Shown here in pieces: positions 3,596 through 10,379 of a stretch of DNA of 19,124 bases (the stretch's first letter is position 1; each line of letters opens with the position of its first letter). The position numbers were made by a program, and so were the translations under genes. The DNA comes from a virus (Duplodnaviria > Heunggongvirae > Uroviricota > Caudoviricetes). The DNA lies in the IMG/VR virus record IMGVR_UViG_2695420427_000009; one strand, 5' to 3'. The notes beneath the pieces were generated by a model that worked only from the letters and a program-made list of their open reading frames with translations, did no database searches and was not told the origin of the DNA.

Positions 3596-3625
3596 ACTTT
3601 ACCTCCAAAACGACGCACACGTCAA
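3596..3625 (-). promoter_or_regulatory. Putative sigma70 promoter of the small RNA / ant operon (-35 TTGACG, -10 TAAAGT, 18-bp spacer)
   Basis: Read by eye on the minus strand; hexamer matches 5/6 and 4/6. Confidence 0.3.
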
Positions 3626-4539: not shown

Positions 4540-4628
4540 AATATTAACTTAACCTATTTGATTAATAATATGTTATTCCATTAAATAAAATATGCCGAGA
4601 ACGGTTTAACTTGAACAGTCATCACTAT

Positions 4629-5024
4629 TCAATCAACTTTTTTAGCATCAGCCATACGCTTCAACCAGTAATCAACAATCGGCTGCTCATCCACAGAATG
4701 TTTACCAGGTATAACTCGCCAGCTATCTTGCGAAAATCTGCCGTACTTACGCGGGAATAGGCCTTTCTTTATCTCCCGCCATGTACTAGGAAAACCATCC
4801 ACAAAAGTACCAATTAACAGGAGAGGGACAAAAATCAGAGCTACAAACCATCGTGCAAGAAAGTGTTCAACAACAACATTTTCACCGTTGTAGTAATACG
4901 CATACGCATCCAATATGCGAATTTTCCTTACCTTAAAAATAGCCTTATGTTGAGAACGACTTAACTTGATACGAATGTATCCCTTATCCAAAGGGGATTC
5001 GTATTTGTATGATTGAACAGCCAT
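4629..5024 (-). CDS. Hypothetical membrane protein (131 aa from ATG at 5024; ORF track extends to a GTG at 5036)
   Basis: One predicted TM helix (WFVALIFVPLLLIGTFV); GGGG RBS-like motif upstream of the ATG; follows the 108-aa ORF on the same strand with a 2-nt gap. Confidence 0.6.
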   Translation of the reverse strand: MAVQSYKYESPLDKGYIRIKLSRSQHKAIFKVRKIRILDAYAYYYNGENVVVEHFLARWFVALIFVPLLLIGTFVDGFPSTWREIKKGLFPRKYGRFSQDSWRVIPGKHSVDEQPIVDYWLKRMADAKKVD

Positions 5025-5026
5025 TT

Positions 5027-5353
5027 TTAACCCCACTCACCATCAGCAAACAAAGCGTTATACTCTGACAATGGTAGACGGTTGCCCTCGATGTAGAGAT
5101 TCAGTTCATACTTCGTCTCCGGGTTTTCCTTGTCGGCTCGTTCCCAACGCTCAGCAGCCTCACGCGCCAATAATTCCACTGCTTTCAGATAATCCTCCGT
5201 ACGGAACCAGCCAAAGATAAGGCCACGATCTGTTACAGCCCAGGCAAACTTTTTTTCTTCCTCCTGGATAGCCTTAATGCGTCGATCGCATTCATCCCGG
5301 CAAAACTGCAGCTGACGGTAATCAAGTTTGTCCAAAAATGCAGTAGTAGACAT
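5027..5353 (-). CDS. Hypothetical protein, 108 aa
   Basis: ORF with GGGGAG RBS 7 nt upstream of the ATG; same strand as and downstream of repA. Confidence 0.65.
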   Translation of the reverse strand: MSTTAFLDKLDYRQLQFCRDECDRRIKAIQEEEKKFAWAVTDRGLIFGWFRTEDYLKAVELLAREAAERWERADKENPETKYELNLYIEGNRLPLSEYNALFADGEWG

Positions 5354-5357
5354 ATTT

Positions 5358-5549
5358 TTACTCCCCGTTCACCGAAAAATCACGATAGAAACGTTTCCAC
5401 ATACGATAAGTCTGCGCGAGTTGTTCACCACGAAACATCGCCTTCCTGGCCTTCATGTTTTCCTTGTGAGACTTTCGATCTATGAACCAAAACCATTGCT
5501 GGAACACACAAAGCAAGAGACACAAAGATAATATCCACTGATTACCCAT
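5358..5549 (-). CDS. Putative small single-TM protein (63 aa), possibly coupled to repA
   Basis: In-frame ATG 2 nt after the repA stop codon gives MGNQWILSLCLLLCVFQQWFWFIDRKSHKEN..., a hydrophobic helix plus basic tail; the longer 102-aa form in the ORF track would overlap repA by about 125 nt. Confidence 0.35.
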   Translation of the reverse strand: MGNQWILSLCLLLCVFQQWFWFIDRKSHKENMKARKAMFRGEQLAQTYRMWKRFYRDFSVNGE

Positions 5550-8500
5550 AGAAAGCGCCCTGCTCTTCGTAGCTGCATGGGCTATTCCCGGTAATGTATT
5601 CACGTAACCGCCGCAGTTCATTGCTGGATAAGTGATCCATGAACTCTGTGAGGTACAGAGATGCAAACGTCATAGCTATGCTAGCTGATGACCATGATGA
5701 CATAGTGGCCAGCTCCTCACCGGAAAGCGCACTCATCGCCCAGGACTCAGGTACAACCACTGGCAACACAGCCAAAGCCTCAGAAATTACTGAATGAGGG
5801 GCGTTTTGAACCTGCTCGTTTGTGGATCGCGTTTTATCATCCATATATATATTGAGATCCAAATCGCGATCCATTTCGATGGCGGTCTTCTCGGCTTTAC
5901 GCGTTTTCAGGGTTAGGCCATCTTTCTGACGCTGAGCAAGAATATCCAGCATAAATGCCGCTGATTCAGGCTCAACAAAACGCAAGGTTGGACGCTTATC
6001 GCCGTCTCTGCCGCGACGTTTACCTGTTTTAAGGCCAAGAGAGTCGCAAATGTTTTTAAACAACGCTTCCGGCACTTTAGGCTTCCCTTTTGGCGTCATA
6101 AAACCACCAATGTGCAGAACGTTATTCAACAGGTCACGGCGTTCGGCTGTCATGAGGTTATCTCGAGCAAATTTGAGACGCTCCTGAGTCGCCTCGCCGG
6201 TCATAGTCTCAGGGTTGATACCGCAGTCGATAAAGTACTGCCGGAGAGTTGCTGATTTAAGCGCATAGAAACCGCGCGCCCCGACTTCAACAGTAGGAGT
6301 AGCTTTTACCTTGTGATCGATTATTCCAGGGAATTTAGTTTTAAAGACATCATCAGCCTGCTCGCGAGTCATCGCGGTCACTACAAAATATTGCCACTGT
6401 CCCGCCTGACGGTATGCGTAGGTAAAATTGATGGCTGCTTCTTCCCGGTCGTAACGACGAGCTGTTACCTCATCTAAAAGCATTGTTTCATAGCGGCGAA
6501 CTTTGTCTCGAGCACCATCGAAATAGAATTTCAGCGTGCCTTCTTCAACCGGTAGTTTCAGTTCGTTTTCAATATCCCAGCGGACAAGTTTTGCCTGTTC
6601 TTCAAGCGTCAGCGCGCGTTTTTTTAGCAGTTCTTCACGCTCTGATTCTTGTGGAGTTTCTGTATTGAGATGCAGATCCAGTGTCTGTTCCCACACAATA
6701 TCCCGCGCTTCTTTACGCAGCTCTTTACCGATATCATTCGCAGCATAATCGGTGGCCAGCGGCGATACCTTATAACCGTCGCTGTGCATGATGCAGATCA
6801 TGTTGCTGGCGTAGTCGTTACGCGCAGTCGCTTCAATAGCGGCTGCTTTAATTTTCATCCTGGTAAAGTCGGTATTGGCCACCCCCATTGATATACGGTC
6901 GCCATCGAAAACGACATCCGTCAGTTCACCGTTCATACCTGCGGTAGCAAGCAATGCCTGGGCGAATGCTCGTTCTATTTTTTGCGGGTCAGTTTCACGT
7001 TTTGCACGAGCTTTATCAAAGCCGATAATAAATTCTTTTGCTGTACGGTCGCGGCGTAGCATTTGCACTGCGTCGCTGGGTACAACTTCACCACAGAACA
7101 TGCCGAAATGACGGTCAAAATGTTTTTGCTCAATCGACACGCCGGATGAAATAGACGGGCTATAAATCAGGCCGTCGTATTTTTTGACCATCTTTTTCGG
7201 TTGATTGGTAAATGCTTCAACTTCTGGCTCTGGTTTGTTTTTCTGGTTTACACACAGAAATTTCTTACCAGGAAAATGCATTCTCAGGGTGGCGGTCACA
7301 TCTTCTGCAAAGGTGGAGCTGTCGGTGGCCAACATGATTTTTTCGCCATTCGATACAGCTTTCACCACCTCGGTCATAATGCGATCTTTTTCTGTATAAA
7401 AAACCCGGATTGGCTCACCTGTTTCGCGGTTGCGAACATCAACAGGTAATTCAATTACGTGGATCTGCAGCCATGCCGGTAAACCTAGTTCTTCACGGCG
7501 TTTCATAGCCAGTTCAGCCAGGTCAACCAGCAGATCGTTCGCATCAGCATCCACCATTATTGGGTGTTGTTCCGTTCTGGCCAGCGCGTCAATTAACGTA
7601 TTGAATACAGCCACCGGGTTTTCCATAGCCCGACCGGAAAGAACGGCACGTAGCCCTTGCGTGGCCTCGTCAAAGCCAAAATAGTCGTGCTGGCGCATCA
7701 ATGGTTGCCAGCAGTTTTTAACAATCGAGTTTATGCAGATGGTCAGTTTACTGGCGTATGGAGCCATTTCCTGATAGCCAGGGTCCTGATAGTGCAGGAT
7801 ATCGGCTTTTACACCTTTTCCTTCTGTCATCATTTCCCACAGGCCACCAATAAGGGAAACACGGTGAGCAACAGAGATACCACGTTCTGAGCTATGCATT
7901 AAAGGTCGTAACAATCCAGTAGATTTGCCGGAACCCATACCAGCACGAACGATGACTATCCCCTGTAGTGATTGCACATACTTCAGGACGTCATCGGTCA
8001 TTACCGAAGTTTCAAAACGCTTATAGGTGATATGTTGAGGACGTTTATTGGGATCAGTTATTCGTTCGCTGAATGAGCGCGGAGCCTGGGCAATACGGCA
8101 CTTTTTATTCAGGCGACGGGCAATGTGGTCTTTTACCGTAGCGCGATAGATATTTTCCAGCCCAATTTCACGCAGGGCGATGCAGAACATGTTAAATAAG
8201 TCTGACGGACTGTTAGGAACCGGACAGGTTAGCATGCCAATATCCACTGCTCTCAGCAGCTCTTTGGCAAAAGTACGACGGTTATCCCGCTTAATTGTCT
8301 TCAGGCGGTTGAGCGTCAGAGATAGCAAATCAGTGCCAGTTTTCAGGCGGTTTGCAGTTGCAAACAGTTGACGTGCTGTTTCACGAAGTCCACGTAGTTT
8401 GTGCAGGTCGTTGAAGTCACTGCACTCCATTTGCGGATCGTCTTCAAAAGTTGGATAGACGCAGCGGACATCGTTGAATTTCGATAAGATTTCATAGCCA

Positions 8501-9782: not shown

Positions 9783-10379
9783 TCATCTACCCTCAACCAT
9801 GAATGATTTGATCGTTCCGACTATTTGGTGAACAAATTCAAGATCGCTTTTCCTGAAGATAGCGCGTTGTGAATTTGTTCCGTCCAGATAGTAATTTTCA
9901 TCATCAAAACGGGCCAGGCGCTGGATGGTGATATTTCCTGCAGTATCACGAACCAGAACATCCTCGCCGGGGACCAGTTCCAGCGCAGAATCGACCAGGA
10001 GAAAATCGCCAGGCTGATAGTTTCCCTGCGCCAGATTGCTGATAGTTAACGCATAAACAGTATTGCGCTGGCTGATGAATGGCAGGAATCGCTCAGTATT
10101 TGGAACCTGTCCTGGCTTCCACTCTTCATCAGGTCCACTTTCAGTTGTGCCAATAACAGGAATGCGATCAGGGTCATATTCTGTCCCATACAGCACCCAA
10201 TGCACTGGCTTGCGTAAGCATTTAGCCAGGGCAATACCTATCTCCAGTGACGGCATTACGTCGCCACGTTCTAAGTTTTGGACGCCTGCAATAGAGATAT
10301 CGACAGCCTCAGCAACTTCTCGCAACGTCAGCTTCATCTCTAAACGGCGTGCTTTCAGTCGTTCGCCTCGTGTTTTCAT
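9783..10379 (-). CDS. cB: Prophage repressor CB (cI-like; N-terminal HTH_XRE, C-terminal S24/LexA-like fold), 198 aa
   Basis: HTH LTLREVAEAVDISIAGVQNLERG at the N-terminus; divergent from the Cro-like gene across an operator-bearing intergenic region; size matches N15 CB. Confidence 0.8.
   Translation of the reverse strand: MKTRGERLKARRLEMKLTLREVAEAVDISIAGVQNLERGDVMPSLEIGIALAKCLRKPVHWVLYGTEYDPDRIPVIGTTESGPDEEWKPGQVPNTERFLPFISQRNTVYALTISNLAQGNYQPGDFLLVDSALELVPGEDVLVRDTAGNITIQRLARFDDENYYLDGTNSQRAIFRKSDLEFVHQIVGTIKSFMVEGR

Follow-up and report, generated by a model that had tools for sequence, protein, structure and literature searches.

Three small, tightly packed genes directly behind repA in an N15-like linear phage-plasmid of Escherichia, and their probable nature as accessory cassettes

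The 19,124-nucleotide (nt) stretch of DNA analysed here (the window; IMG/VR record IMGVR_UViG_2695420427_000009) is that of an N15-like linear phage-plasmid, or telomere phage-plasmid, of Escherichia, and the layout of its telN, repA and cB genes matches those of N15 and Escherichia phage PhiR46_1. Directly behind repA it carries three small genes, w63, w108 and w131 (63, 108 and 131 amino acids (aa), respectively), which are genuine, tightly packed and conserved protein-coding genes. We are highly confident that the three are real and are co-expressed with repA, and we consider it quite probable that they represent three independent accessory cassettes that are not needed for replication. The explanation that we find best overall, and hold with middling confidence, is that they are accessory genes co-transcribed with repA and expressed in lysogens, and that the membrane proteins among their products act in exclusion or host interaction; taken by itself this last role for w63 and w131, which is argued by analogy, is put forward only tentatively.

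An earlier note on this DNA had described three open reading frames (ORFs) of these sizes on the (minus) strand of repA, and all three are present at the coordinates and sizes it gave (Table 1). Its account of the junctions stands in part: w63 and w108 are indeed separated by 4 nt and w108 and w131 by 2 nt, but there is no 2-nt gap between the repA stop codon and w63; its ATG (5549-5547) and that stop codon (5544-5542) lie within ATGGGTAA, so that the two genes overlap by 8 nt. The annotation of PhiR46_1 shows the identical repA/w63 overlap. Hydropathy profiles (Kyte-Doolittle, 19-residue window) agree with the two membrane proteins claimed earlier, with one hydrophobic segment each in w63 and w131 and none in w108. 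The start of w131 could also be placed at a GTG at 5036, which would yield 135 aa, but the family alignment favours the ATG (131 aa). RepA itself matches PHROG 4913 (‘replication’) with an E value of 0, has weaker Pfam matches to Herpes_ori_bp and Toprim_3, and is labelled ‘plasmid replication protein, CyRepA1 family’ in relatives. The three-gene stretch is found at 94–99.9% identity in 28 PLSDB plasmids, and, among 5426 complete E. coli genomes, 17 have nearly identical copies, plasmid-borne every time.

Table 1. Features of the window, with the three genes under study and repA first and the remaining features in order of position.
Feature	Coordinates	Strand	Remarks
w63, 63 aa	5549..5358	-	directly behind repA
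w108, 108 aa	5353..5027	-	second gene behind repA
w131, 131 aa from ATG	5024..4629	-	third gene behind repA
repA end/w63 start junction	5542..5562	-	last repA codons (..AFYG*) hold the w63 ATG and a weak Shine-Dalgarno-like CAGGG
repA, N15-type primase/helicase replication initiator, 1331 aa	9537..5542	-	heads the unit
Protelomerase (telN), 631 aa	106-2001	+	
ORF, 260 aa	2955..2173	-	counterparts in relatives annotated Bro-N/BRO family
ORF, 77 aa	3185..2952	-	downstream of the Icd-like ORF
Icd-like ORF, 57 aa	3355..3182	-	downstream of the C4/isrK RNAs
C4 antisense RNA, RF01695	3400-3487	-	Rfam 82 bits, above gathering score
isrK, RF01394	3514-3589	-	Rfam 52.8 bits, above gathering score
Promoter-like site	3625..3596	-	near the C4/isrK RNAs
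Lipoprotein (predicted), 270 aa	3727..4539	-	signal peptide ends LSGC; 35% GC vs 45% in the window
AT-rich spacer, 25% GC	4540..4628	-	between w131 and the lipoprotein gene; homology to most relatives stops at ~4614
cB-type repressor gene	10379..9783	-	

The ratio of non-synonymous to synonymous polymorphism (pN/pS) in the annotated frame is 0.16 for w63, 0.25 for w108 and 0.31 for w131 (5–7 distinct alleles), and it is at least 0.8 for all three genes in the two alternative frames, except that one alternative w63 frame gives no ratio because it contains zero synonymous differences. The coding status of the 63-aa frame, on which the earlier note had been guarded, is borne out by its relatives, both in this ratio and in homologues at 27–51% identity. 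It is thus extremely unlikely that w63 is not a gene at all and that its frame is open by chance or through constraints on the end of repA and on the ribosome-binding site of the gp35-like w108. Such a reading could appeal to RefSeq records, which often lack a w63 annotation (‘hypothetical protein (x2)’ stands under the match in many), to a protein database search that yields only two clusters, and to the scarcity of w63 substitutions (eight variable sites); however, six of these eight sites, a small count, are third codon positions, the homologues keep the length, the hydrophobic N-terminus, the tail motif, the ATG and a strong AGGAGG, w63 is carried by 21 IMG/VR loci (29–100% identity), and in one locus (L041) the w63-type gene has moved away from repA and is nonetheless intact.

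The signals for starting w63 translation lie within repA. At the site that matches the weak Shine-Dalgarno-like sequence of the window, 6 nt upstream of the ATG and within repA, a strong AGGAGG is present in diverged relatives, and the w63-type start in relatives reads aggaggcgttctATGGCT(A/G)A, so that Shine-Dalgarno sequence, ATG and repA stop are all inside the last repA codons (..QEAFYG*). Together with the features kept by the diverged homologues, this arrangement is good evidence that w63 is a translated gene that is coupled to RepA. A w63-family start that overlaps repA and has its Shine-Dalgarno sequence inside it is found only with the ..QEAFYG* type of RepA. RepA C-termini are of at least three types, ..QEAFYG*, ..LKRLxxV* and ..AVAI* or ..GMAI* (window 5542-5600 and loci L004, L011, L012, L014, L016, L020, L040 and L041).

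Each of the three starts is preceded by a Shine-Dalgarno-like sequence, GGAG before w108 and GGGG before w131. On the minus strand, from the end of repA to that of w131, a consensus scan found no sigma-70-like promoter and a single, weak terminator-like match, which lies inside w108 (5241..5220). The proposal in the earlier note of one operon with repA fits this anatomy (a common strand, the 8-nt overlap, gaps of 4 and 2 nt, and no internal promoter in the consensus scan), and it is plausible that w63, w108 and w131 are transcribed together with repA. They are probably expressed in lysogens, as judged from their linkage to repA; genes co-transcribed with repA would therefore be made whenever the plasmid-prophage replicates.

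The hydrophobic segment of w63 spans about residues 5–24 (peak 1.85) and is followed by a basic tail (protein isoelectric point (pI) 10.4, net charge +6) that contains the conserved motif YR(M/V)W..(V/F)YR(E/D). Homologues of 66–71 aa are found at 27–51% identity in Klebsiella phages Kpn_R1 and NAR688 and in Enterobacter and Pseudocitrobacter elements, and all w63 relatives checked keep the hydrophobic N-terminus, the basic tail (net +6 to +10) and the motif YR(M/V)W..VYRE. The family is a narrow one by the protein database search mentioned above, and w63 has no Pfam, NCBIfam or PADLOC family match at E values up to 1. The predicted topology is N-out, C-in; w63 would be an inner-membrane peptide of the tail-anchored type, its short N-terminus in the periplasm and its basic tail in the cytoplasm. 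In most members the start and the ribosome-binding site are embedded in the end of repA.

The second gene, w108, resembles a gene of N15 itself. Its product is 64% identical to N15 gp35 over the full length (BLASTP E 2e-51) and matches PHROG 10878, whose role is unassigned, at 104 of 104 profile positions (E 2.6e-51), and w108 is the homologue of gp35 and is taken as its orthologue. The family comprises 66 clusters at 56–95% identity, the named ones all from Enterobacterales and many on contigs of ~45–50 kb, and shows numerous invariant positions, some of them in a conserved C-terminal ..LPxSEYxxLF(A/S)DxxWG; in w108 this motif, ..SEYNALFADGEWG, invariant at most positions, is a candidate binding peptide. 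The protein is acidic (pI 4.8; 4.6–4.8 for the gp35-like protein) and, having no hydrophobic segment, is predicted to be soluble. Its AlphaFold2 model is a confident alpha/beta fold (predicted local distance difference test (pLDDT) 91). Structure-based searching with this model, an approach that the earlier note had pointed to, could be carried through but found no significant fold match. Its top BFVD neighbour is N15 gp34, encoded next to gp35 (L002 4968-5297), with a TM-score of 0.58 over 110 columns, 16% identity, a probability of 0.87 and an E value of 0.3. From the model, gp34 and gp35 may be ancient tandem paralogues; profile-profile comparison of the two (hhalign) is not significant and does not confirm paralogy, and the same comparison of gp35 with a DUF5448-type protein is also not significant. 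No Pfam or PADLOC match to w108 was found, and its sole NCBIfam match, PvrR, is far below the cutoff (E 0.073; 11.7 bits vs 580).

Genes of the gp35 type occupy the same place in many elements: on the strand of repA and adjoining it or one small ORF away in the window, N15, NAR688, Serratia, Salmonella and Enterobacter. It is conceivable, though we think it unlikely, that the gp35-like protein is an early establishment or anti-defence factor, made along with RepA upon entry of the phage-plasmid into a cell, that neutralises a host nuclease or defence protein, and that the membrane ORFs beside it are unrelated cargo. The acidic character and the compact, confidently predicted alpha/beta fold would suit such a factor, as would its near-invariant place downstream of repA in Escherichia, Klebsiella, Salmonella, Serratia, Enterobacter and Citrobacter; the lack of a PADLOC or Pfam match and of any significant structural or profile support speaks against it, as does the fact that gp35 is missing from two loci (L040 and L041).

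The third gene, w131, belongs to PHROG 15458, whose role is unassigned (E 8.9e-92, 131 of 131 positions). A profile search of 1.84 billion representatives found relatives in 164 clusters at E ≤0.001, typically of 110–130 aa, vs only seven clusters in a word-index search, and all 60 aligned relatives match PHROG 15458 and have a hydrophobic peak (mean 2.15). In w131 the hydrophobic segment lies within residues 50–81 (helix about 54–75, peak 2.27), between a basic, beta-rich N-terminal part and a basic C-terminal part, and because both flanks are basic its topology is ambiguous. Family motifs include Y8, G15, H26, Y43, G95 and F97, in an N-terminal Y..G..H(N)..YY and a C-terminal (Q)KKYG.F.SD. 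No Pfam family or solved structure corresponds to these proteins; searching the PDB with the family profile returned only a designed transmembrane protein (E 0.036), profile-profile comparison with N15 gp33 is not significant, and the AlphaFold2 model of w131 (from a four-sequence alignment) is unusable (pLDDT 37).

The gene contexts of the w131 family, found by tblastn against a phage collection, are diverse: in Yersinia P840 the gene follows repA and is the last before telN, in Proteus Gorganvirus it overlaps the end of the DNA polymerase gene, in Salmonella phage CF-SP1 (Swiduovirus) it stands between terminase and portal genes, and in Aeromonas phage phiA009 it is flanked by a cell-wall hydrolase gene on one side and an RNase H-like gene on the other. 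In light of these contexts and alignments, the w131 family reads as a broad phage family, an accessory gene inserted in many unrelated phages.

The interval between repA and telN is a conserved locus with variable content (Silpe et al., PMC10432266). These authors set aside 210 of 271 loci, and because most of those filtered out resembled N15's, N15-like genes were not part of their study (PMC10432266). In the N15-like loci compared here the interval can be described as a series of four slots. The first, which overlaps the repA stop, holds a w63-type gene or an unrelated soluble gene, N15 gp36, or is empty (Serratia, Salmonella). Of the 22 w63-bearing loci scanned (L020-L041), 20 have a gp35-type gene in the second slot, all but L040 and L041, where the w63-type gene stands without gp35; the Serratia, Salmonella and N15 loci, which have no w63, keep the gp35-type gene as well. 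The third holds one or more of w131, N15 gp34, a DUF5448-matching protein (~126 aa), an N15 gp33-type protein and the telocin immunity gene ImmA, and the fourth a 270-aa lipoprotein, a 95-aa ‘Spackle’-annotated protein or the telocin TelA.

The three families assort independently, and w131 allele types pair with either downstream cargo. The earlier note had left open whether the genes are conserved downstream of repA, and the answer differs among them: w108 is present in nearly every relative examined, but w63 and w131 are absent, deleted or disrupted by an insertion sequence (IS) in some. Thus w63 is absent from the N15, Serratia, Salmonella and Yersinia relatives, and the first three of these lack w131 too. 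The NZ_LR883007 match is without the final 157 nt of w131, and the annotation of that record puts an IS5-like element where w131 would lie.

Some loci show what has happened at these slots. That of pS142-3 (L005 2848-3543) has an intact gp35, a w63 stub (its initial 8 codons plus some of the 3′ end), a w131 stub (the first ~12 codons, MAVQSYKYE.., in a 47-aa ORF) and a fragment like the hydrophobic part of N15 gp33 (..LNRLWFVPLY..); it is a record of repeated cassette replacement. In L041 (IMG/VR) a 185-aa ORF at 2403-2960 splits repA from the w63-type gene, which is itself intact and is not followed by a gp35 homologue. In Kpn_R1 (L003 1019-2724) and NAR688 (L004 1078-2783) the w131/lipoprotein slot is filled by two proteins already published, the telocin TelA, which is glycine-rich and 377 aa long and has a hydrophobic C-terminal domain, and its immunity protein ImmA, a multi-helix membrane protein of 181 aa that is encoded convergently.

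This pattern of gain and loss also bears on the toxin-like function that the earlier note had entertained. In an addiction module w63 would be a Hok/TisB-like membrane toxin, countered by the gp35-like protein or by an RNA, and would stabilise the plasmid through post-segregational killing. Its size and hydrophobic N-terminus resemble those of small membrane toxins, a gp35-like gene follows it in most loci, and pS142-3 has lost w63 and kept gp35, as expected if a toxin decays before its antidote. However, the supposed partners assort independently, with w63 found without gp35 (L040, L041) and gp35 without w63 (N15, Serratia, Salmonella); no promoter is predicted on the plus strand across from w63 and no Rfam family covers w63, so no antisense RNA or promoter was detected there; no PADLOC or Pfam toxin-antitoxin match was found; and constitutive coupling to an essential, continuously expressed gene would be odd for a lethal peptide. 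We therefore consider this idea, which is left without support, very unlikely.

A part in replication or maintenance deserves weighing as well. According to PMC10612081, which cites Ziegelin 2005 and Mardanov & Ravin 2006 for PY54 and N15, circular replication needs no more than repA, and linear replication no more than telN, repA and the telomere site. A maintenance role, another suggestion of the earlier note, is disfavoured by that statement and by the relatives in which w63 and w131 are absent, deleted or IS-disrupted; an essential replicon component would be both required and present in all relatives, and w63 and w131 are no part of the published minimal replicon and are missing from some relatives. 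A bioRxiv paper on RepA-linked copy-number mutants proved irrelevant, since it deals with another replicon that is regulated by CopA/CopT RNA.

In a more specific form of this idea, w63, made in a fixed ratio to RepA by virtue of the overlapping start, would be a replication-associated membrane tether whose basic cytoplasmic tail anchors RepA, gp35 or the replicating linear plasmid to the inner membrane, by analogy with the phi29 membrane proteins p16.7 and p1, perhaps with w131 acting likewise. The 8-nt overlap and the Shine-Dalgarno sequence inside repA, which are kept down to ~30% protein identity, are in keeping with this, as are the predicted N-out/C-in topology with a tail of +6 to +10 in all family members checked, the acidic protein (pI 4.8) that follows w63 in most loci, and the w131 relatives of Yersinia P840, located behind repA, and of Proteus phages, located immediately behind the DNA polymerase gene. 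Against it, repA alone replicates (PMC10612081), w63 is absent from the N15, Serratia, Salmonella and Yersinia relatives and lost in pS142-3, the w63-type gene of L041 is set apart from repA by another ORF and has no gp35 beside it, and w131 relatives also occur between terminase and portal genes. We judge such a tether to be improbable, and more doubtful yet the general claim that w63 typifies a class of RepA-coupled membrane peptides, made in fixed proportion to RepA, whose tails tether RepA, gp35 or the hairpin-ended plasmid. If true, it would add to linear phage-plasmid replication a layer of membrane organisation that is undescribed for N15-type elements.

The explanation that we favour is instead that of accessory genes carried on the repA transcript. 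The three genes would be transcribed with repA and translated by coupling, and would be made whenever repA is made, the plasmid-prophage state included; they would be separate cassettes, not one three-part machine. As an acidic cytosolic alpha/beta protein and a nearly constant member of the locus, w108 would have a conserved cytosolic role tied to the repA transcript. The peptide w63 and the putative single-helix membrane protein w131 would have lysogen-expressed ‘moron’ roles at the inner membrane, in superinfection exclusion or another interaction with the host or with competitors. An exclusion-type role would be in line with the cargo of neighbouring slots (ImmA/TelA, the Spackle-annotated protein, the lipoprotein).

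Several observations weigh against this explanation. The promoter and terminator scans were based on consensus sequences only, and real signals may escape them. In the NAR688 lysogen proteome, in which ImmA was detected, the w63 homologue gp48, the gp35 homologue gp49 and RepA (gp47) were all undetected (Lithgow and colleagues, PMC12042878). The ‘gp35’ of that proteome was considered as a w108 homologue and rejected, since it is the RelE/ParE toxin that NAR688 gene 35 encodes. No sequence or profile similarity of w63, w108 or w131 to a known exclusion, defence, immunity or toxin family was found. The gp35-like protein is far more conserved than a typical moron (56–95% identity across genera, in nearly all relatives), which hints at a role nearer to RepA or to establishment. 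A role in replication would also fit two further observations, namely that the coupling of w63 translation to RepA is conserved and that some w131 relatives lie beside replication genes. The earlier statement that none of the three proteins belongs to a recognised family still holds, as there are no Pfam, NCBIfam or PADLOC hits and the only matches are unassigned PHROGs and N15 gp35.

How do these genes compare with better known systems? N15 is like the window in having gp35 downstream of repA (gene 37) on the same strand with one small ORF between them, and unlike it in having the unrelated, soluble 82-aa gp36 in the place of w63 and gp34 and gp33 in the place of w131, with no similarity found; genes 33–36 have no functional annotation in the N15 GenBank record. 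In the Klebsiella telomere phage NAR688 the published gene order is RepA gp47, hypothetical gp48 and gp49, and then ImmA (PMC12042878), in which gp48 is the w63 homologue and gp49 the gp35 homologue. The TelA/ImmA pair (PMC12042878) lies in the same repA-telN interval, with ImmA in the slot and on the strand of w131 and expressed in lysogens; however, w131 has one hydrophobic helix vs four in ImmA, BLASTP finds no match between the two, and the TelA-like ORF of L003 and L004 is lacking in the window, which has no bacteriocin-like gene nearby.

The small superinfection-exclusion proteins HK97 gp15, T4 Imm and P22 SieA have one or two membrane helices and are non-essential accessory proteins expressed from the prophage. 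Like them, w63 and w131 are small, have one predicted membrane helix each and would be expressed from the prophage, but there is no sequence or profile similarity to either, and w63 differs from all three in being translationally coupled to a replication initiator. The small membrane-anchored proteins p16.7 and p1 of phi29 are encoded with replication genes and organise replication of a linear genome; in p16.7 the anchor is N-terminal and the cytoplasmic part binds nucleic acid. The architecture of w63 resembles that of p16.7, but its tail is only ~40 residues long and no such protein is needed by the N15-type replicon.

Vibrio linear plasmid-like phages have TF-smORF/VqmA-Qtip induction modules in their repA-telN locus (PMC10432266). 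The window genes share with them small proteins and a variable location between convergent repA and telN genes. These modules consist of a DNA-binding transcription factor and a counter-oriented small ORF that inactivates the repressor (PMC10432266), whereas w63, w108 and w131 contain no Pfam DNA-binding domain, are all co-oriented with repA and include two membrane proteins.

Downstream of w131 lies the gene for a predicted 270-aa lipoprotein, which belongs to no family and has no PDB match and none in the phage collection; in its place relatives carry a 95-aa secreted protein annotated ‘Spackle exclusion protein’. It may share the transcript of the three genes, because no terminator-like site is predicted on the minus strand from the w131 stop to ~3535. 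A functional pairing of w131 with this lipoprotein was considered and rejected, as w131 alleles combine freely with the lipoprotein or the Spackle-type gene. The spacer between them contains one copy of a 24-nt direct repeat (4591-4614 vs 4946-4969, 83% identical) that reproduces the w131 codons for ‘IKLSRSQH’ past the w131 stop, and homology to the Spackle-type relatives ends at the edge of this repeat (~4614). The repeat may be what is left of another w131-like gene, or a scar of recombination during cassette exchange; the whole spacer, aligned to w131, scores only about 3 standard deviations above shuffled sequences. Further on, the C4 and isrK RNAs and the Icd-like, 77-aa and 260-aa ORFs (Table 1) make up an N15 immA-type RNA-controlled antirepressor unit, which forms the far boundary of the repA-linked block.

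Telomere phage-plasmids of the N15-like type are common in clinical Enterobacteriaceae, and their repA-telN interval is where telocins, exclusion proteins, induction modules and other competitive cargo are carried. Within this already known variable locus w63, w108 and w131 are probably accessory genes, and the only mildly unusual part is the location of the w63 start signals in the last codons of the initiator gene. A near-constant gp35-like gene flanked by exchangeable membrane-protein cassettes nonetheless provides a map for finding new cargo. If the three genes are ordinary morons, little changes; if the gp35-like protein or w63 affects replication, establishment or exclusion, that would fill a gap in N15, a model system that is 25 years old.

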